From: Escherichia phage FriedrichZschokke
Sequence record: MZ501067
Length of the DNA: 64,000 nucleotides
Direction: 5' to 3' (one strand)
The notes beneath the pieces are model-generated. The model was not told the origin of the DNA. It did not search any database and saw only the letters and a program-made list of their open reading frames with translations. The translations under genes and the position numbers were made by a program. This document shows, piece after piece, positions 8,454-56,444 of this stretch (the first letter of the stretch is position 1; every line of letters begins with the position of its first letter).

Positions 8454-10136
8454 TTAAACCATTACAGTAAATCGACCAACTTTCTTCATTTGAAGATGCT
8501 GACCATATTCTTGTGGGTCATGGTCTTTATGCGAAATTATAAAAACATTAGTATTTTTCATTGAATTTATAATATTCGCTACACCTTTAATACCTTCGGC
8601 ATCAAATGACCCATCAAACACTTCATCGAGTATTAATGTACTAATACTAACACCAGATACAATAGAAGCAATATCACGCCAAGTAAATAAAAGAGCAATA
8701 TCAATTCTTGCCTTTTCACCTTCACTAAATGAAGCATAACTAAAATCTTCACGACCACGGGATTTAATTGTCTCATTAAATTCTTCATCTAATGTAAACA
8801 CATAATCCGCTTCCATTATTTTAAGATAGTGGTTAATCTGCTTATTAAATAATGGAATGTACTTTTTAATAATAGCACCTTTAATACCAGAATCTTTGAG
8901 CATATCAGTCAAAATTCCTCGGTGGTATTTTTCCATTACTAAATTAGTTTTTGTCTTAACAATTTTATCAAGTTCTTCTTGAAGCAGTGCTATTTCATCA
9001 GCATGGTCAATAAACTCAGAAGATGCTTTTTCTATAGCTGCTTTAACTTTTTTAGCTTTATCTACTGTCGTGATTAGAGATTGCTTTTTATTGCGAATAT
9101 CATTTGCCAACGACTGCTGGGTTTTAATATTATCTCGGTATTCATCAACAAGAACTTTTAAATTATCACGGTGTGTTGAAAGCTGTTCAAACGAATGCGT
9201 GCATTCAGAAACTTTATCTTTAATTTTAGAAACAACTTTATCACCGGAACTCAATTGTGACAAACAGGTTGGACATAATCCACCTTCGTGATACATATTA
9301 ATGACTTTATTATACGAGTCAATTTTTGATTTAATTAAAACTGCTTCTTGACCGATTTTATTAAATGCATCAGTCGGGTCTTCGTCTAAAACAATATTAA
9401 CTAATCTTTCATTAGCTTCTTCTATTTCCGATTTTAGCGTTCTAGCTTCTTTTGCCAAATCATCATACATATTTTGCAGACGAGTAAGATTGTCACCCGT
9501 TAATTTTTTCTGGCGTTCAACGTTATCATTATATATTTTAATTTGTTGGATAATACTATCTTTTTTAACATCAAGCACTTGGTTTTGTGAATTTAATTCA
9601 CGTATTAGTGCTTTATTAAGCTTATCCATTTCAGCTAATGTTCCTACCTCAAGCAGGTCTTCCACAAGCTTTCTTCGTGCAGGGGTCGACAAACCCATGA
9701 AAGGGGTATACCCTGCTGTACCAAGGACAACAATCTGCTTGAAACTGGCATATGACATTCCGATAAGCTGTTCAAATTCTGCTTGGAAATCTTTACTGCT
9801 GGCAGATTCATTAAGACGTGTACCGTTAACGGTGATTTCGAAAACGTTTGGTTTTTGTCCTCTTTTGATATAGTACTTTTTCTCATCATATTCCATCCAC
9901 AGTTCAACTAAAAGTTCTTTCTTATTTGTGCTGTTTATTAATTGACCTTTCTTTACATCACGAAATGGTTTGCCAAAAAGCCCAAATGTGATGGCTTCTA
10001 ACATAGTAGACTTACCACCGCCATTTCGTCCAGTAATAAGAGTTTTTTGAACCTTATCTAATTGAATGTCAATAGGATTTCCACCTACTGACATTATATT
10101 TTGATACCTAACTCGGTTTAATTTAAAATTCTTCAC
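8454..10136 (-). CDS. 46: Recombination nuclease subunit (Rad50/SbcC-like ATPase)
   Basis: 560 aa; Walker A GRNGGGKST, long coiled-coil middle, C-terminal signature/Walker B region. Confidence 0.93.
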   Translation of the reverse strand: MKNFKLNRVRYQNIMSVGGNPIDIQLDKVQKTLITGRNGGGKSTMLEAITFGLFGKPFRDVKKGQLINSTNKKELLVELWMEYDEKKYYIKRGQKPNVFEITVNGTRLNESASSKDFQAEFEQLIGMSYASFKQIVVLGTAGYTPFMGLSTPARRKLVEDLLEVGTLAEMDKLNKALIRELNSQNQVLDVKKDSIIQQIKIYNDNVERQKKLTGDNLTRLQNMYDDLAKEARTLKSEIEEANERLVNIVLDEDPTDAFNKIGQEAVLIKSKIDSYNKVINMYHEGGLCPTCLSQLSSGDKVVSKIKDKVSECTHSFEQLSTHRDNLKVLVDEYRDNIKTQQSLANDIRNKKQSLITTVDKAKKVKAAIEKASSEFIDHADEIALLQEELDKIVKTKTNLVMEKYHRGILTDMLKDSGIKGAIIKKYIPLFNKQINHYLKIMEADYVFTLDEEFNETIKSRGREDFSYASFSEGEKARIDIALLFTWRDIASIVSGVSISTLILDEVFDGSFDAEGIKGVANIINSMKNTNVFIISHKDHDPQEYGQHLQMKKVGRFTVMV

Positions 10137-17320: not shown

Positions 17321-17791
17321 TTAATCATGTGTCCACACCCCATCGGTATTTGACCAAAGTCGCTGATTATCTGATCCTCGCCACAGCTTTTTAGTCGGAA
17401 GATTTTTCTCATACTTCCCATCAATAATAACATCAACATATTTAAGCATTTCTAGTTGTTTAATATCTTCAAACTTATATCCTGTCCACAACCAAATGCT
17501 TTTATTGGGATAAAGATTTTTTACTGTTTGAACCACAGAGTGAATCACGTCTCTGTTATCAGGATAAAGAGGGTCACCTCCGGTTATAGTTAATCCTTCT
17601 ATATAATCATTATTCAAACATTCAATTAATTGTTCTAGTGTTTCACCAGTGAATGGAATACCATTTCTAGCATTCCATGTTGATTTATTATAACACCCTT
17701 CGCATTTATGCAAACAACCTGTAACGAAAAGAACGACCCTGCATCCAGGGCCATTCACAAAATCGCAAGGATAAAATCTATCATAATTCAT
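17321..17791 (-). CDS. nrdG: Anaerobic ribonucleotide reductase activase (radical SAM)
   Basis: 156 aa; CxxxCxxC-type cluster (GCLHKCEGC); overlaps nrdD stop by ATGA. Confidence 0.9.
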   Translation of the reverse strand: MNYDRFYPCDFVNGPGCRVVLFVTGCLHKCEGCYNKSTWNARNGIPFTGETLEQLIECLNNDYIEGLTITGGDPLYPDNRDVIHSVVQTVKNLYPNKSIWLWTGYKFEDIKQLEMLKYVDVIIDGKYEKNLPTKKLWRGSDNQRLWSNTDGVWTHD

Positions 17792-19605
17792 TGGTGTTTA
17801 ACCCTATGCATGATTTCTTTATTTTTGCCGAGATTAAATCCGCGTTCGTTCGGATTTCCCAAATAACCACATGTTCTTCTTATTGTGTTCATCTTTTTAG
17901 GATCAGTTTCTCCACAAATAGAACAAACAAATCCATTTTCAGTAGGAGTCATTTCATGGGTACTTCCACATGTAAAACATTTATCTACTGGCATATTAAC
18001 ACCAAAATAATCTAAATGTTGTGCAGCATAATCCCATACAGCCTCAAGACCTTTTAAGTTATTTTTCATATCAGGAAGTTCAACATAAGAAATGTGACCA
18101 CCTGTCGCAATGAAATGATATGGCGCTTCACGAGAAATCTTTTCAAACTGAGTAATATTTTCTTCTACTGAAACGTGGAAACTGTTAGTGTACCAGCCTT
18201 TATCGGTAACATCTTTTACACTTCCATATTTTTCTGTATCAAGTTTACAGAAGCGATAACAAAGGTTTTCAGCAGGAGTAGAATACAAACTAAAAGCAAA
18301 CCCAGTTCTTTCAGTCCACTGTTTAAGACGAGCATTCATTTTAGTTAAAATTTCTCGTCCAATATCACGACCGACAAGAATATTCAATTCGTGAATACCA
18401 ATGTATCCTAAGGACACTGAACTTCTACCATTTTTAAATAACTCAATTATATCGTCATCAGGTTTAAGACGAACCCCGAATGCACCTTCTTGGTAAAGAA
18501 TAGGAGCAACAGTCGCTTTAACTCCTTTTAAGGAACTAATTCTACACATCAATGCTTCAAAACATAAATCCATTCGTTCATTGAACAATTCAACAAATTT
18601 CTGCTCATTGAATTGAGTTCCAATATAAGAATCTAATGCGATACGAGGAAGATTCAGTGTTACAACACCGAGATTATTACGTCCATCAAGAATTTCATTA
18701 CCGGTTGAATCTTTCCACACACTCAAGAAACTACGACAACCCATTGGAGAAACAGGAATAGATGAGCCGGTGATAGCTTTATTGTTCTTAGCCGAAATGA
18801 TGTCAGGATACATTCTTTTGCTTGCGCACTCTAAAGCAAGCTGCTTAATATCATAGTTCGGGTCGTCTTTATAAAGATTAATACCTTCTTCAACGAACAT
18901 AACAAGTTTAGGGAAAATAGGAGTTATCCCATCACGACCAAGACCTTTAATACGATTTTTCAGAATTGCTTTCTGAATCATTCGTTCAGTCCAGTCAGTT
19001 CCCGTACCAAATGTAATTGTTACAAAGGGTGTTTGTCCGTTTGAACTAAAGAGAGTATTTACTTCATATTCATAAGCTTGGAATGCATCGTATACATCTT
19101 TTTCTGTTTTAGATTGAGCATAATTCAATGCATCAGCGATTTGCCATTTTTCTGCATCCTCAATATGTTTTGCATAGGTGCGTTTAACATAAGGAGAAAG
19201 TACTTTATCTACATTAGCAAAAGTCGTTCCGCCGTATTGGTGGGAAGCAACCTGTGCAGTAATTTGTGCCATAATTGCAGTAGCAACGCCAATTGATTTA
19301 GGAGTTTCAATCTGCGCATTACCTAGCTTAAATCCGTTCTCAAGCATTCCTTTTAAATCTACTAAACAACAATTAGTAAATGGAAGAGCAGGGGAATAAT
19401 CAATATCGTGGAAATGAATAATTCCGCTTTCATGCGCTTTCATAATAAAAGACGGGACCATATTTTTGGCAATGTGTTTAGACACAATACCAGCCATAAG
19501 GTCCCGTTGAGTTGGAAAAACACGAGAATCTTTATTGGCATTCTCGTTTAAAAGGTCTTTATTAGTTTTATGAATCAATCCTTCAATTTCTTTTTCAATT
19601 GTCAT
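17788..19605 (-). CDS. nrdD: Anaerobic ribonucleoside-triphosphate reductase (class III), uninterrupted
   Basis: 605 aa continuous ORF; C-terminal glycyl-radical motif RRTCGYLG and Cys-rich Zn ribbon; no intron or endonuclease insert. Confidence 0.95.
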   Translation of the reverse strand: MTIEKEIEGLIHKTNKDLLNENANKDSRVFPTQRDLMAGIVSKHIAKNMVPSFIMKAHESGIIHFHDIDYSPALPFTNCCLVDLKGMLENGFKLGNAQIETPKSIGVATAIMAQITAQVASHQYGGTTFANVDKVLSPYVKRTYAKHIEDAEKWQIADALNYAQSKTEKDVYDAFQAYEYEVNTLFSSNGQTPFVTITFGTGTDWTERMIQKAILKNRIKGLGRDGITPIFPKLVMFVEEGINLYKDDPNYDIKQLALECASKRMYPDIISAKNNKAITGSSIPVSPMGCRSFLSVWKDSTGNEILDGRNNLGVVTLNLPRIALDSYIGTQFNEQKFVELFNERMDLCFEALMCRISSLKGVKATVAPILYQEGAFGVRLKPDDDIIELFKNGRSSVSLGYIGIHELNILVGRDIGREILTKMNARLKQWTERTGFAFSLYSTPAENLCYRFCKLDTEKYGSVKDVTDKGWYTNSFHVSVEENITQFEKISREAPYHFIATGGHISYVELPDMKNNLKGLEAVWDYAAQHLDYFGVNMPVDKCFTCGSTHEMTPTENGFVCSICGETDPKKMNTIRRTCGYLGNPNERGFNLGKNKEIMHRVKHQ

Positions 19606-20117: not shown

Positions 20118-20603
20118 TCAAGTATTGTAAAACATTTGATGCAATCGCTTATATTGCCGAATCTTTTGGTCAGAAAAAGAAATTTGAGTTTCAAGCCATT
20201 CAATGTATTCTGCGGCAGCTTGCATCAGGTTACCTTCATAGCCATCGTTATTTTCTTGCGCAGCTAATTTAGCTAATGCGTATGAAATACGTTCACCTTG
20301 AAAATCGGCTTTAGGCTTCTGAACAACTTGATTAGTTCGCTCTACAACTTCTTCAATTTCGCCATTTTCAACGGATTCAGTATTCCATAAGCACCAATAC
20401 GTAATTGGCTTATCGTAGATGTTAATAATCTTTCCATCAGAAAGTTCAATTTCAATAATTCCAGTATCAGGCTCTATATCATCTTCACATTCTTTTGCAA
20501 GTTCACGAACTTTAAAGACAGTACCTGCGCTAAGTTCCGGCCAGTAATTACACAGCCCTGTATCAGCACGATTAATTCTAAACCACTTATCTACTGTAAT
20601 CAT
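20118..20603 (-). CDS. Hypothetical protein (~161 aa), in the position of T4 pin
   Basis: ORF downstream of gene 49; start placed at the second Met; functional identity not verified. Confidence 0.5.
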   Translation of the reverse strand: MITVDKWFRINRADTGLCNYWPELSAGTVFKVRELAKECEDDIEPDTGIIEIELSDGKIINIYDKPITYWCLWNTESVENGEIEEVVERTNQVVQKPKADFQGERISYALAKLAAQENNDGYEGNLMQAAAEYIEWLETQISFSDQKIRQYKRLHQMFYNT

Positions 20604-20726
20604 GTCCCATCTCCATATCAATTAAGTCATTTATCGTTGGTTCATTATATACTGTTTCTTCATCAGTGTAAACCGGTTCTTCCGGCTCTGGCTCTACAGT
20701 TTCCCATCTAGCCGCCCACCAAGGTT

Positions 20727-21047
20727 TTATAGCGTAATCCATTCTCGTACTATCTGAGTTACTACACGTTCACGGGGCTCGACTAGTTCAACAGTCGGAA
20801 CTGCATAATACCAGTCAGAATGGTAAGAACCCGAACGGCATTCATTTACGGAAACATGTACGTTATGTTTTGGACTAAAATAAACACACTGACGATATTG
20901 ACATTTACCATCTTGCACCCAGTCTTCTATTTCGACAGGTTTAAGATAATCGGAAAAATCGAAATCATAGTTTTCCGAAAATGCATCATGGTCTTCAATG
21001 ATTTCGCTCAGAACTGCATCAACATCTAATTTATTTTCAATAGTCAT
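20727..21047 (-). CDS. Hypothetical protein (106 aa), acidic, Cys-containing
   Basis: ORF on the early strand. Confidence 0.5.
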   Translation of the reverse strand: MTIENKLDVDAVLSEIIEDHDAFSENYDFDFSDYLKPVEIEDWVQDGKCQYRQCVYFSPKHNVHVSVNECRSGSYHSDWYYAVPTVELVEPRERVVTQIVREWITL

Positions 21048-21950: not shown

Positions 21951-22254
21951 TTTCTTCTCGGTCAAATCGGTGTTTACAATGGCGACATTTATAACGAAGA
22001 TTACTAGTCTGCCAATGGACCAATTGCACCTGTTCAGTACCGCATTCAGGGCAATTAGGAACGTTTTTAGAAGCTCTTTCACGTCGTTCAACCATAGCCA
22101 TAATAGCGTCCCAGGCCGGCGGTTTAAAATCTAAATCGTCGCAGCCGTGAATCTTTCCACGCATTTCCATATCATCTTCCTCACCAGCCATAATAATTTT
22201 AATTAAACTGGAATTACTTGAAGCTGCAATGTCTTCTAATAAACGCTTTTTCAT
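21937..22254 (-). CDS. Zinc-ribbon protein (105 aa)
   Basis: CPECG...CRHCKHRF four-Cys motif. Confidence 0.55.
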
Positions 22255-37717: not shown

Positions 37718-37931
37718 ATTTGACTTCCTCACCAGTACATAAATCGTATTCAACTAAACGAATAGGTTCATGAATGCCATATCCCTGAACAGAAATTTCT
37801 GTAGTAGGATAAATTCCATCAATATCACCCATATTCCACGCTTCGTTAAATTGCTGTTCGCCTGAATTACTAAACCACTCGGCGAAAGCATTTAGCACAT
37901 CTTTAGAACCTTCAATAATTATCTTTGCCAT
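37710..37931 (-). CDS. Hypothetical protein (73 aa)
   Basis: ORF with ATGA overlap to the GrcA-like gene. Confidence 0.5.
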   Translation of the reverse strand: MAKIIIEGSKDVLNAFAEWFSNSGEQQFNEAWNMGDIDGIYPTTEISVQGYGIHEPIRLVEYDLCTGEEVKYD

Positions 37932-38293
37932 TATAAGCTCTCAGTAAAGGTACGAGCAATAACGTCGCGCTGCTGTTCCGGAGTCAGAGAGTTAAAGCGA
38001 ACTGCATAACCGGATACACGGATGGTCAGCTGCGGATATTTTTCCGGATGCTTAACTGCATCTTCCAGAGTTTCACGACGCAGAACGTTAACGTTCAGGT
38101 GTTGACCACCTTCAATTTTAACTGTAGGCTGTGGCTCAATTTCAATTTCACGAGCATGCAAACCGTAGAAAATTTCTGGGTCTACAAAAGAGTCCTCTTT
38201 AAAGGTTTTAGAGACAATAATTCGTGCTTGAATACCATCTTCAAAATAAATAGTACCTTTATGTGTGCCTTCAAGAATTTGATATGCTTTCAT
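37931..38293 (-). CDS. grcA: Autonomous glycyl-radical cofactor (GrcA/YfiD-like)
   Basis: 120 aa; C-terminal ~60 aa (...[33 protein letters not shown]) carries the RVSGY glycyl-radical motif and appears near-identical to E. coli GrcA as recalled. Confidence 0.8.
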
Positions 38294-38300
38294 ATAAACC

Positions 38301-38627
38301 TCAATTAGAAAATAAATTTATCCAAGATTGTTCTTTAATTAAAAATGGCTCAGAATCATATGCCATTAAACTTTGGGTGATTAGTCCTTTAAAAGGTCCA
38401 TCAATAAATTCCATGGTAAAATATGGAATTTTATTCATTAACTGTGCGTTAGGAGCAGTGCACAAAACTCTGCATCCTTTGAATACACCTTTTTGTAATT
38501 TGTATTGCTTGGGATAAAATTCGCTTAAAATGTTGTTATTTGCCAAAATTTCAAAATGATTTACCAATTTATTTTTAATAGTTTTTGGCGAAAAATAGAG
38601 ATATTCGAAAAGCTGTGTGTCTGTCAT
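38301..38627 (-). CDS. Hypothetical protein (~108 aa)
   Basis: ORF trimmed to an internal Met. Confidence 0.45.
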
Positions 38628-39223
38628 TATTGCATTCCGATTACGAAAAACTGTGGACGAGTAATACCACCAATGCAACATTTACTATTACAGCAGTAGT
38701 GTACAGTGTCAATATGGACGCTATAAATCTTATCCATATCAGGAGATTTGACAGGCTCATCAATTATATACAAAATTCGCGAAAGCGATAAACCTCTGAA
38801 CTTGCTTCCTTTATTACCAATAAAACTGCGTACAGAATCAGTAAATAAACGAAAACGTATATCATCATTAGAATAACGCGAAAATTCCTTTTTAATGTTA
38901 TTTGCAGAAATTTTAGCGTAAGCTGAAGTATTAGAAAGAACAATAACTGTTCCGCCATCATACAGCCAATTAGCAGCAAAGTTAGTCACAGCAATTGATT
39001 TACCAGATTGACGTCCACCATCTATACGAAGTGTGCAGTACTGCTTAAGTAATTCTTCAAATGGCGGGATATATTCGTTTTTACAAATTTCTTCTACTCT
39101 AGCATCAGAATGGTGTGTAAAAGCATTCATCAGGGATAGATACGGGCCAGTTAAAAATGTTCTCATATTTTCTCTCTTAATTTTTGGGCCATTCCATGGC
39201 ACATGAGTTGTCCATTCCTGCAT
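38627..39223 (-). CDS. P-loop NTPase-like protein (198 aa)
   Basis: Walker A-like GGRQSGKS and Walker B-like LYIIDE; C-terminal Cys cluster. Confidence 0.5.
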   Translation of the reverse strand: MQEWTTHVPWNGPKIKRENMRTFLTGPYLSLMNAFTHHSDARVEEICKNEYIPPFEELLKQYCTLRIDGGRQSGKSIAVTNFAANWLYDGGTVIVLSNTSAYAKISANNIKKEFSRYSNDDIRFRLFTDSVRSFIGNKGSKFRGLSLSRILYIIDEPVKSPDMDKIYSVHIDTVHYCCNSKCCIGGITRPQFFVIGMQ

Positions 39224-45491: not shown

Positions 45492-45567
45492 TGGTCGAGG
45501 CAGTAGGGATCGAACCTACGACCCAGGACTTAGAAGGTCCTTGCTCTTCCTTCTGAGCTATGCCCCG
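45492..45567 (-). tRNA. tRNA-Arg (anticodon UCU)
   Basis: Hand-folded cloverleaf: 7 bp acceptor, T-loop UUCGAUC, anticodon loop CUUCUAA; CCA encoded. Confidence 0.85.
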
Positions 45568-45571
45568 TAAT

Positions 45572-45647
45572 TGGGGTGACCGATGGGAGTCGAACCCATG
45601 ACTACGAGAATCACAATCTCGAGTTCTACCAACTGAACTACGGCCAC
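45572..45647 (-). tRNA. tRNA-His (anticodon GUG)
   Basis: Hand-folded cloverleaf: anticodon loop UUGUGAU, discriminator C73, CCA encoded; no G at position -1 (U instead). Confidence 0.75.
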
Positions 45648-45761
45648 ATTAATACCTACTCCAACAATCAAGATGTCTTCACACGAAATTAAGAGAAGAG
45701 TGATCAGTTCAACCCCTATAATCGCGTCAAGTAGATATTAATGTGACAGTTGTCACAAATT

Positions 45762-45836
45762 TGGCGGACGTGATAGGATTCGAACCTATAACCAATCGCT
45801 TAACAGGCGATCGCTCTGCCATTGAGCTACACATCC
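45762..45836 (-). tRNA. tRNA-Asn (anticodon GUU)
   Basis: Hand-folded cloverleaf: anticodon loop CUGUUAA, T-loop UUCGAAU, CCA encoded. Confidence 0.8.
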
Positions 45837-45840
45837 AAAT

Positions 45841-45927
45841 TGGTGGGGAGTGGTGGAGTCGAACCACCCGAGTCGCAATGACAATGGATTTACAGTCCAC
45901 ACCGCTACCTCTACGGGATAACTCCCC
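45841..45927 (-). tRNA. tRNA-Tyr (anticodon GUA), long variable arm
   Basis: 87 nt; perfect acceptor GGGGAGU/ACUCCCC; anticodon loop CUGUAAA; variable region resembles E. coli tRNA-Tyr; CCA encoded. Confidence 0.8.
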
Positions 45928-45940
45928 TTAATTCTTAATT

Positions 45941-46015
45941 TGGTGGCCCTGGGTGGAATTGAACCACCATCTGGCGATTATGAGTCGCTTGCTTGAACCT
46001 TCCAGCTACAGGGCC
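45941..46015 (-). tRNA. tRNA-Ile (anticodon CAU, lysidine-type; Met not excluded)
   Basis: Anticodon stem-loop AGCGA-CUCAUAA-UCGCC closely resembles E. coli tRNA-Ile2; paired head-to-tail with tRNA-Thr as in the T4 Thr-Ile dimer. Confidence 0.75.
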
Positions 46016-46016
46016 T

Positions 46017-46092
46017 TGGTGCTGATTGACGGAATCGAACCGCCGACCTTCTCATTACAAGTGAGTTGCTCTACCTACTGAGCTAAATCAGC
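46017..46092 (-). tRNA. tRNA-Thr (anticodon UGU)
   Basis: Hand-folded cloverleaf: anticodon loop CUUGUAA; CCA encoded. Confidence 0.8.
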
Positions 46093-46097
46093 AAAAC

Positions 46098-46187
46098 TGG
46101 CGGAGGCGATAGGATTTGAACCTATGAGTCGCCGGAGCGACTGCCGGTTTTCAAGACCGGTGCATTAAACCACTCTGCCACGCCTCC
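46098..46187 (-). tRNA. tRNA-Ser (anticodon UGA), long variable arm
   Basis: 90 nt; anticodon stem-loop CCGGU-CUUGAAA-ACCGG; CCA encoded. Confidence 0.8.
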
Positions 46188-46189
46188 AG

Positions 46190-46263
46190 TCTCCATACAA
46201 GGATTTGAACCTTGGACCTCCTGATCCCAAATCAGGCGCTCTACCAAACTGAGCTACACGGAG
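46190..46263 (-). tRNA. tRNA-Pro (anticodon UGG)
   Basis: Anticodon loop UUUGGGA; CCA not encoded; 2 nt from tRNA-Ser (dimeric precursor arrangement). Confidence 0.8.
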
Positions 46264-46273
46264 TAAATTAAAT

Positions 46274-46347
<74 letters not shown>

Positions 46348-46352
46348 AAATT

Positions 46353-46439
46353 TGGTGCGAGAAGTGGGACTCGAACCCACAAGGAAATCATTCCGCAGCA
46401 TTTTAAGTGCTGTGCCTTTACCAATTTGACCATTCTCGC
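46353..46439 (-). tRNA. tRNA-Leu (anticodon UAA), long variable arm
   Basis: 87 nt; anticodon stem-loop CAGCA-CUUAAAA-UGCUG; CCA encoded; 1 nt from tRNA-Gln. Confidence 0.8.
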
Positions 46440-46440
46440 G

Positions 46441-46513
46441 CTGGGAATAAAGGACTCGAACCTTTGCATCCTGGAATCAAAATCCAGTGCCTTACCAACT
46501 TGGCTAATTCCCA
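46441..46513 (-). tRNA. tRNA-Gln (anticodon UUG)
   Basis: UGGGAAU acceptor; anticodon stem-loop CUGGA-UUUUGAU-UCCAG; resembles E. coli tRNA-Gln; CCA not encoded. Confidence 0.85.
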
Positions 46514-54461: not shown

Positions 54462-56444
54462 ATGGCAAATACCCCTGTAAATTATCAATTAACAAGAACA
54501 GCAAATGCTATTCCCGAGATATTCGTCGGGGGTACGTTTGCTGAAATAAAACAAAACCTCATTGAATGGCTTAATGGCCAAAATGAATTTTTGGATTATG
54601 ATTTTGAAGGCTCAAGATTAAACGTTCTGTGTGACCTTTTGGCTTATAATACATTGTACATTCAGCAGTTTGGTAATGCTGCTGTATATGAAAGCTTTAT
54701 GCGTACTGCTAACTTACGAAGTTCAGTTGTTCAAGCTGCACAAGATAACGGATATTTACCTACTTCAAAATCCGCTGCGCAGACCGAAATTATGTTAACA
54801 TGCACCGACGCATTGAATAGGAATTACATTACTATTCCTCGCGGAACTCGCTTTTTAGCATATGCAAAAGATACTTCTGTTAATCCATATAACTTCGTTT
54901 CTACCGAAGACGTTATTGCCATTCGTGATAAAAATAACCAATATTTTCCGCGTTTAAAATTGGCCCAGGGACGTATAGTAAGAACTGAAATCATTTATGA
55001 TAAATTAACACCTATTATCATTTATGATAAAAATATTGATAGAAACCAGGTTAAATTATATGTTGATGGAGCGGAATGGATTAACTGGACGAGAAAGTCA
55101 ATGGTTCATGCTGGTTCAACATCAACGATTTACTATATGCGTGAAACTATTGATGGAAACACTGAATTCTATTTTGGCGAAGGTGAAATTTCTGTTAATG
55201 CTTCTGAAGGAGCTTTGACCGCTAATTATATCGGAGGTCTTAAACCTACCCAGAACTCTACGATTGTTATTGAGTACATCAGTACTAACGGTGCAGATGC
55301 GAATGGCGCAGTCGGATTTTCATATGCAGATACATTAACAAATATAACTGTCATCAATATTAATGAAAATCCAAACGACGACCCAGATTTTGTCGGAGCA
55401 GATGGCGGCGGTGATCCAGAAGATATTGAGCGTATTCGCGAATTGGGTACTATTAAACGCGAAACCCAGCAACGCTGCGTAACTGCGACTGACTACGATA
55501 CATTCGTTTCAGAGAGATTTGGTTCTATTATTCAAGCTGTTCAGACTTTCACTGATTCTACTAAACCTGGGTATGCATTTATTGCTGCTAAACCTAAATC
55601 AGGATTGTATTTAACTACTGTGCAACGTGAAGATATTAAAAATTATCTCAAAGACTATAATTTAGCTCCTATTACGCCATCAATTATTTCTCCTAATTAT
55701 CTTTTTATTAAGACTAATTTAAAAGTCACATATGCCTTAAATAAGCTGCAAGAATCCGAACAGTGGCTCGAAGGTCAAATAATTGATAAAATTGATCGTT
55801 ATTATACCGAAGATGTAGAAATTTTTAACTCGTCTTTTGCCAAGTCTAAGATGTTGACATATGTAGATGATGCAGATCATTCTATCATTGGTTCATCAGC
55901 GACAATTCAAATTGTTCGTGAAGTACAAAACTTCTATAAAACGCCTGAAGCAGGTATTAAATACAATAATCAAATAAAAGATCGTTCTATGGAATCTAAT
56001 ACGTTTTCATTTAATTCTGGACGAAAGGTTGTAAATCCTGATACTGGTTTAGAAGAAGATGTATTATATGACGTTCGTATAGTATCAACAGACCGAGATT
56101 CTAAAGGAATTGGTAAAGTTATTATTGGTCCATTTGCTTCTGGCGATGTTACAGAAAATGAAAACATTCAGCCGTATACAGGAAACGATTTTAACAAATT
56201 AGCAAATTCTGATGGACGCGACAAATACTATGTTATCGGTGAAATAAATTATCCAGCTGACATGATTTATTGGAATATCGCTAAAATTAATTTAACATCT
56301 GAAAAATTTGAAGTTCAGACTATTGAATTATATTCTGACCCAACCGATGATGTTATCTTTACTCGTGATGGTTCACTGATTGTATTTGAAAATGACTTAC
56401 GTCCACAATACTTAACTATCGATTTGGAGCCTATATCACAATGA
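54462..56444 (+). CDS. 6: Baseplate wedge protein
   Basis: 660 aa. Confidence 0.9.
   Translation: MANTPVNYQLTRTANAIPEIFVGGTFAEIKQNLIEWLNGQNEFLDYDFEGSRLNVLCDLLAYNTLYIQQFGNAAVYESFMRTANLRSSVVQAAQDNGYLPTSKSAAQTEIMLTCTDALNRNYITIPRGTRFLAYAKDTSVNPYNFVSTEDVIAIRDKNNQYFPRLKLAQGRIVRTEIIYDKLTPIIIYDKNIDRNQVKLYVDGAEWINWTRKSMVHAGSTSTIYYMRETIDGNTEFYFGEGEISVNASEGALTANYIGGLKPTQNSTIVIEYISTNGADANGAVGFSYADTLTNITVININENPNDDPDFVGADGGGDPEDIERIRELGTIKRETQQRCVTATDYDTFVSERFGSIIQAVQTFTDSTKPGYAFIAAKPKSGLYLTTVQREDIKNYLKDYNLAPITPSIISPNYLFIKTNLKVTYALNKLQESEQWLEGQIIDKIDRYYTEDVEIFNSSFAKSKMLTYVDDADHSIIGSSATIQIVREVQNFYKTPEAGIKYNNQIKDRSMESNTFSFNSGRKVVNPDTGLEEDVLYDVRIVSTDRDSKGIGKVIIGPFASGDVTENENIQPYTGNDFNKLANSDGRDKYYVIGEINYPADMIYWNIAKINLTSEKFEVQTIELYSDPTDDVIFTRDGSLIVFENDLRPQYLTIDLEPISQ

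Follow-up and report, generated by a model that had tools for sequence, protein, structure and literature searches.

Pyruvate formate-lyase (PFL) is cleaved by O2 at Gly734, and two small proteins, YfiD (GrcA) of Escherichia coli and Y06I of phage T4, restore the cleaved enzyme once they have been radicalised by PFL-AE (PMC8683613). In that paper, which summarises Wagner et al. 2001, YfiD and Y06I are described as the only two validated spare-part proteins, with the same reported activity, namely PFL rescue after activation by PFL-AE. YfiD residues 61–127 reproduce the fold of PFL 693–759, whereas residues 1–60 are disordered and play a part in binding and activation (PMC8683613, Drennan laboratory work). 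The C-terminal domain of PflB is the part that PFL loses on cleavage by O2, and is thus the piece that the spare part replaces.

Here we examine the counterpart of Y06I, encoded by gene vs.6, in Escherichia phage FriedrichZschokke, using a stretch of 64,000 nucleotides from sequence record MZ501067 (the window). Like E. coli GrcA, it is a small stand-alone glycyl-radical domain protein with an RVSGY radical site. E. coli grcA sits between ung and eamB, whereas vs.6 lies in the early region of a lytic phage. Our main reading, to which we give a probability of about 0.85, is that vs.6 is a phage grcA homologue that serves as a PFL spare part and whose 3' portion has been overwritten by host grcA.

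Identity and position of vs.6

The gene is an open reading frame of 120 codons on the minus strand, from ATG to TAA, in the ORF list of the window (Table 1), and the position that an earlier note on this DNA had assigned to it was exact. At the DNA level it is 100% identical to a gene annotated grcA in Escherichia phage slur04 (Tequatrovirus) and 92–99% identical to vs.6 of several hundred T4-like phages; GrcA-type vs.6 is annotated in hundreds of such genomes. The encoded protein shares 119 of its 120 residues with T4 vs.6 (NP_049730, named 'autonomous glycyl radical cofactor GrcA' in RefSeq), the exception being residue 73, which is Arg here and His in T4. Synteny is also kept. In slur04 and T4, vs.6 lies within the early block that holds regB and vs.3 to vs.8, flanked by vs.7 and vs.5, and in the window the RegB and SLT-domain vs.1 ORFs, identified by Pfam, adjoin the vs.6 region, so that the gene has the position of the T4 vs.6 orthologue group. 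The placement of vs.5 is the same in slur04, T4 and fFiEco06, and vs.5 itself matched no Pfam family. A scan for promoters and terminators gave 11 sites against 11.4 expected from shuffles, that is, no enrichment. T4 vs.6 has the same length, position, E. coli-identical tract and junction as the window gene, and differs from it by the one residue and a few synonymous changes at the 3' end, codon 118 being GAA in T4 and GAG here. The window gene is the already known T4-type vs.6/Y06I, characterised in 2001, and as a gene it is ordinary.

Table 1. Coordinates of the features discussed, numbered from the first letter of the window.
Feature	Position	Strand	Basis and remarks
nrdG, radical-SAM activase of NrdD	17321..17791	-	Pfam Fer4_12 7e-49, Radical_SAM 2.4e-7
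nrdD, anaerobic ribonucleotide reductase	17788..19605	-	Pfam NRDD 1.1e-170, Gly_radical 1.2e-24
vs.5, downstream ORF, 73 aa	37710..37931	-	ATG overlaps vs.6 TAA (ATAATG)
vs.6 (Y06I / phage grcA) CDS	37931..38293	-	120 aa + stop; ORF list, Pfam, slur04/T4 identity
Last 28 nt of vs.6	37931..37958	-	Alignment; E. coli-like with 4 synonymous differences (ATC>ATT, GAA>GAG, CTG>TTA)
157-nt perfect E. coli grcA match, gene nt 179–335	37959..38115	-	Alignment; core of the putative host-derived tract, encodes glycyl-radical domain
RVSGY motif, residues 92–96	38006..38020	-	Direct reading; aligned to GrcA and the PFL Gly734 loop
Gly95 codon GGT (radical glycine)	38009–38011	-	Direct reading
Phage-type 5' part, gene nt 1–178 (residues 1–59 and first base of codon 60)	38116..38293	-	No E. 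coli DNA match
GAGG, Shine-Dalgarno-like element (putative function)	38299..38302	-	5 nt upstream of vs.6 ATG; overlaps vs.7 stop
vs.7, upstream ORF	38301–38681	-	ORF ends from list

The Pfam Gly_radical family (PF01228) matches residues 61–101 of the protein with an E value of 2.8e-18, the structure of E. coli GrcA (PDB 6OWR) matches it with 8.6e-42, and the homologous C-terminal glycyl-radical domain of PflB (residues 697–759; PDB 1H16 and 2PFL) with 5e-26. In the 6OWR alignment and the translations, residues 61–120 of vs.6 are the same as GrcA 68–127 at 60/60 positions, and the radical site reads R92-V93-S94-G95-Y96. The earlier note had described the last ~60 residues as host-like and RVSGY-bearing, with a differing N-terminal half, and had named absence of the motif on alignment as evidence against its view; the motif and Gly95 are present, and both parts of the description hold. 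In the N-halves only 14 of 40 residues (35%) are the same as in GrcA, a weak but significant similarity (pairwise E 5e-6), and the GrcA model TIGR04365 aligns to vs.6 residues 20–120. Since the N-half similarity is significant, the entire vs.6 protein is a GrcA homologue and not a fusion to an unrelated part. Its size, Gly_radical domain, radical glycine and N-half homology are those of the GrcA/YfiD family (TIGR04365, IPR011140). However, its score of 153.3 bits in the NCBIfam GrcA equivalog model lies under the curated cut-off of 170, because the N-half is divergent. Compared with E. coli GrcA, vs.6 is 7 residues shorter and its N-half is AT-rich. It is of the GrcA type and not of the PflB type: its GrcA match clearly exceeds the best matches to PflB, and vs.6 has no catalytic barrel.

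Host-like DNA in the 3' half

In every one of 5426 complete E. coli genomes, grcA shares 97.8% of its DNA with vs.6 over gene nt 179–363, and the first 157 nt of this tract match perfectly. The earlier note had proposed nucleotide alignment with host grcA as a check, low identity counting against a host origin; the alignment instead gave high identity, a sharp junction and E. coli-like GC. The four differences from E. coli grcA are all synonymous and are confined to the final 28 nt. The GAG and Leu-codon variants among them are also found in other Tequatro- and Mosigviruses, and the ATT change is private to FriedrichZschokke among the phages compared. No DNA similarity to E. coli grcA was detected upstream of nt 179 or past the stop codon. 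The 5' part is conserved among T4-like phages and is the counterpart of the disordered N-half of GrcA. The GC content is 0.50 in the 157-nt run versus 0.35 in the window, placing the run in the top 1% of 157-nt windows. For gene nt 1–180 it is 0.34, and GC3 is 0.20 there versus 0.42 in codons 61–112. The gene thus combines an abrupt drop in identity with a shift in composition, as expected for homologous replacement. When positions 20500–45499 of the window were compared with E. coli by megablast, all eight matches listed fell on the vs.6 tract.

At the end of vs.6 (37929–37947, minus strand), codon 118 has gone from GAA to GAG, which gives a GAGAG some 6 nt ahead of the vs.5 start codon. GAG at this codon is common to most of the Tequatro-, Mosig- and Jiaodaviruses compared, but not T4. 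Translational coupling might use the GAGAG as a ribosome-binding site, and such a site could account for the last vs.6 codons resisting the E. coli-like state.

Eleven tRNA genes (Arg, His, Asn, Tyr, Met, Thr, Ser, Pro, Gly, Leu and Gln) are clustered at 45492–46513 on the minus strand and make up the window's largest GC-rich island, which reaches 57% GC. T4 itself has 8 tRNAs, and FriedrichZschokke seems to carry more. Further short islands with GC of at least 0.47 lie at 20647–20846, 21993–22191, 9647–9803 and 55360–55533; none of the eight E. coli megablast matches listed for 20500–45499 lies on the first two, the ones inside that segment.

The donor was sought among 80 Enterobacterales grcA loci from a genome scan, a set without K. 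pneumoniae and K. oxytoca. Over the last 183 nt, identity was 97.8% for E. coli, 96.7% for a cryptic Escherichia sp. and 90.7% for Citrobacter amalonaticus, and was lower than the last of these in 78 other Enterobacterales and Pasteurellaceae. On these identities the donor of the vs.6 tract appears to be E. coli specifically.

A second host-like tract is found in the Jiaodaviruses, which are Klebsiella phages. Their vs.6 has a GC content of 0.36–0.37 in the 5' half and 0.54–0.56 in the 3' half, and the host-like tract begins at the same codon as the E. coli-type tract. In the KPV15-like L122 the tract is identical to K. pneumoniae grcA at 156/157 positions, and five other Jiaodavirus tracts are 96.8–98.1% identical. 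The PKO111 tract is 91.1% identical to K. pneumoniae. Against E. coli grcA, the Jiaodavirus tracts reach about 87%, and they carry the Klebsiella-type Leu and Glu at the positions of E. coli Glu84 and Lys88 (GrcA E84L, K88E). Phage records that reach 95% identity or more number 77 for K. pneumoniae grcA, about 505 for E. coli grcA and none for Salmonella grcA. The K. pneumoniae and K. aerogenes references were taken from chromosomes mislabelled as plasmids in PLSDB, and one base was removed from the K. aerogenes sequence to restore the frame. The sequences point to at least two independent donors, E. coli and a K. pneumoniae-type bacterium, having patched vs.6.

Several records consulted in this comparison have peculiarities of their own. 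In L122 (IMG/VR UViG_2974754850, 167,034 bp) one nucleotide is missing from a stretch of five T, so that the vs.6 frame at 301–659 is broken; this points to a homopolymer sequencing error or else to a pseudogene. In Klebsiella phage CPRSA (OM971648, 222–586) the 5' half is out of frame and two short CDSs are annotated, only the final 61 codons being called grcA, through a frameshift or an assembly error. Plasmid-labelled records with grcA are Klebsiella sp. WOUb02 plasmid unnamed4 (275 kb), LR134122 and CP125156, the last a K. pneumoniae 'plasmid' of 5.37 Mb and evidently a chromosome under the wrong label. In the K. aerogenes copy, one additional A in a run of A cuts the annotated CDS short. 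The 19-kb 'viral' contig UViG_2706794630_000006 of IMG/VR holds a bacterial-type full-length grcA with an MITGIQI... N-terminus and a tract 91% identical to Yersinia; this is probably the host flank of a prophage call and not a phage gene.

Competing accounts of the pattern

Given the two donor types, vs.6 may be a recurrent site of gene conversion from the host chromosome to lytic T-even phages, overwritten independently by E. coli and K. pneumoniae-type DNA. We hold this tentatively, at slightly under even odds. The account that best survives beside it supposes that each lineage received host DNA in one ancient event, after which there was only slow divergence and spread from phage to phage, with no recurrent or ongoing conversion; this is a serious contender, though one we would bet against. 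It draws on the fact that the tract tracks the phage genus and not the isolation host. Tequatrovirus isolates from Yersinia, Salmonella and Citrobacter have the E. coli tract, and Jiaodavirus isolates from K. aerogenes, Raoultella and 'Salmonella' have the K. pneumoniae-type tract, which argues against fast tracking of each new host. We had considered host tracking by the tract at the species level, and found it unsupported on the same grounds, and also because no phage reached 95% identity to Salmonella grcA. In addition, the Tequatro- and Mosigviruses share the GAG variant near the 3' end, and a comparison of tract end-points, made with a view to separating their events, showed an identical 5' junction and 3' variants that were either common to several phages or singletons private to one. 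Inside the tract the differences are dispersed singletons, as decay after one event would give.

However, the tract is far less diverged between the two genera than the rest of the locus. In the 5' half of vs.6, 10–13 of 52–55 synonymous codons differ between Tequatro- and Mosigviruses, as against 0–2 of 52 in the tract (Fisher p 0.001–0.004), and flank identity is 82–84% upstream of vs.6 and 69% downstream. With the tract less diverged than its flanks, one event before the split of the genera is excluded, and either spread across genera or re-conversion is required. The tract may thus be younger than the Tequatrovirus/Mosigvirus split, or have been kept uniform by re-conversion, or have spread between the genera, and phage-to-phage exchange could have carried one event from one genus to the other. 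The Jiaodaviruses also fit poorly with a single event: the identity of their tracts to K. pneumoniae varies between 91% and 99.4%, whereas only 0–3 positions vary in the first 110 nt of the gene.

Within Jiaodavirus, the flanks of vs.6 are about 77% identical. Kp17-11 and PKO111 have the same first 110 nt of vs.6, although their flanks are only ~77% identical and their tracts differ at 15/157 positions, a pattern that points to local mosaicism around vs.6. We also considered reading the Jiaodavirus polymorphism as nested conversion tracts, which it resembles, but do not take this as proof, because the variable zone seems to extend upstream of the host-like tract and phage-to-phage mosaicism is a confounder.

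A different question is whether the phage had a grcA homologue before the host DNA arrived. The earlier note had suggested capture of a host gene segment; its host-derived 3' half stands, but the event is better described as homologous replacement within a resident homologue. Capture in the strict sense would be a one-off, illegitimate event in which a 3' fragment of host grcA was fused de novo to an unrelated phage ORF, and the sharp 5' junction, with no DNA similarity upstream of nt 179, is what such a fusion would look like. We consider it improbable, at odds of well under one in ten, for three reasons. The N-half of the phage protein is itself a homologue of that of GrcA (35% identity across 40 aa, E 5e-6; TIGR04365 over 20–120). 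Full-length vs.6 homologues are present in Karamvirus CC31, Slopekvirus phiEap-3, Pseudotevenvirus Cronuts, Krischvirus RB49 and T5-like phages, and their 3' halves, with lower GC, are only 73–85% identical to every host grcA tested and look like the phage-type state, as expected of unconverted relatives. Finally, the independent Klebsiella-derived tract begins at the same codon. Because the N-half is a diverged GrcA N-half and the sister genera keep a phage-type 3' half, vs.6 is probably a resident phage grcA homologue overwritten by host DNA and not a newly captured fragment. The shared 5' junction fits homologous replacement bounded by the onset of pairing similarity between phage and host.

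Intragenic recombination between host and phage is known from cyanophage photosynthesis genes such as psbA. There, likewise, a phage metabolic gene is a mosaic of phage- and host-type segments through homologous exchange. The case of vs.6 differs in that its carrier, a T-even phage of enterobacteria, is strictly lytic and breaks down the DNA of its host, and in that the tract is very short, ~160–175 nt, with its junction near a protein domain boundary.

The window also encodes the anaerobic ribonucleotide reductase NrdD and its activase NrdG, which the earlier note had joined with vs.6 into a set of glycyl-radical functions. Window nrdD is an uninterrupted ORF of 605 aa and appears to be without the group I intron that T4 nrdD (sunY) carries. 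Both nrd genes are indeed present, but they lie 18 kb from vs.6 and pairwise comparison of vs.6 with window NrdD gave no significant similarity (E 2.6), so the proposed set is a thematic grouping, neither an operon nor a structural link. That vs.6 could be a spare part for phage NrdD and not for host PFL is very unlikely. In favour of the idea, NrdD likewise belongs to the glycyl-radical enzymes that O2 cleaves, nrdD and nrdG share the phage genome with vs.6, and the early genome paper of Nolan et al. 2006 (PMC1524935), which reports only a Pfam match for vs.6, suggested a role in nucleotide metabolism from that match alone. Beyond the lack of similarity to NrdD, however, the domain is identical to that of GrcA and matches the PFL C-terminus at 5e-26, and for T4 Y06I it is PFL rescue that is reported in PMC8683613.

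Still less probable is that there was no transfer at all and that extreme purifying selection, or selection at the mRNA level, keeps phage and host sequences the same. The protein constraint is certainly very strong, with 60/60 residues identical. Yet phages that encode the same tract residues otherwise differ from E. coli at 18–28 of 44–52 same-residue codons (~40%), Cronobacter phage Cronuts for example at 21/52, whereas in FriedrichZschokke, T4, fFiEco06 and two Mosigviruses the count is 0–1 of 52. The near-absence of synonymous differences is therefore not due to chance or protein constraint; the tract is closest to its host, beyond what the protein demands. Moreover, the tract has E. coli-like GC inside a genome of 35% GC, and the Klebsiella phages follow Klebsiella codons and not those of E. 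coli.

The direction of transfer appears to be from host to phage, because the composition of the tract is host-like and E. coli grcA looks vertically inherited: its identity to Citrobacter is 92.9% in the 3' half and 90.4% over the whole gene, and to Salmonella 84.2% and 84.4%. The reverse, in which a T-even phage would have given E. coli its grcA 3' half, has next to no probability, for although identity by itself carries no direction, the tract GC of 0.50 is host-like and not phage-like, the 3' half of E. coli grcA is about as close to its relatives as the whole gene is, and the match is found in all 5426 E. coli genomes, with the gene between ung and eamB in the single genome examined for its locus.

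Proposed function and significance

The phage-specific half of vs.6 appears from the alignment to correspond to the disordered region of GrcA. The host-derived tract starts at GrcA residue 68, so that what it encodes is in essence the structured domain, the one inserted into PFL. Following the literature on T4 Y06I and E. coli YfiD, the host PFL-activating enzyme (PflA) would install the radical on Gly95 of vs.6. Residues 61–120 would then stand in for the glycyl-radical domain lost by PFL cleaved at Gly734, and the divergent N-half would aid binding to the cleaved enzyme. The phage could thereby sustain fermentative production of acetyl-CoA and formate by the host during microaerobic infection. 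It would supply vs.6 itself because host gene expression is shut off, yet host fermentation would presumably be needed at low oxygen.

The history of the gene would begin with an old, phage-adapted grcA homologue with an AT-rich 5' half and 35% protein identity to GrcA. About nt 179–351 of this gene would have been overwritten by chromosomal grcA of E. coli through homologous recombination, leaving codon usage of the E. coli kind and a run of 157 nt without a mismatch. In the Klebsiella T4-like phages the same replacement, at the same 5' junction, would have used a K. pneumoniae-type donor, and a second donor at one junction would make the event repeatable and bounded by the start of homology. 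T4-type phages degrade host DNA. We infer recombination of vs.6 with host DNA from the sequence pattern alone.

In the literature searched, nothing relevant came up that ties phage grcA to recombination with the host or to auxiliary metabolic genes, and no paper there describes the host-derived nucleotide patch or its Klebsiella-phage counterpart. The evolutionary point is a modest one: vs.6 is a compact and clear case of a lytic phage metabolic gene patched with host DNA, in which the donors differ between phages of different hosts. The pattern gives a direct route to gauging how host fragments recombine into T-even genomes during infection. If recurrent conversion is the true account, re-conversion would keep the spare part of the phage matched to the PFL, PFL-AE and GrcA of its host, while the disordered N-half evolves freely.
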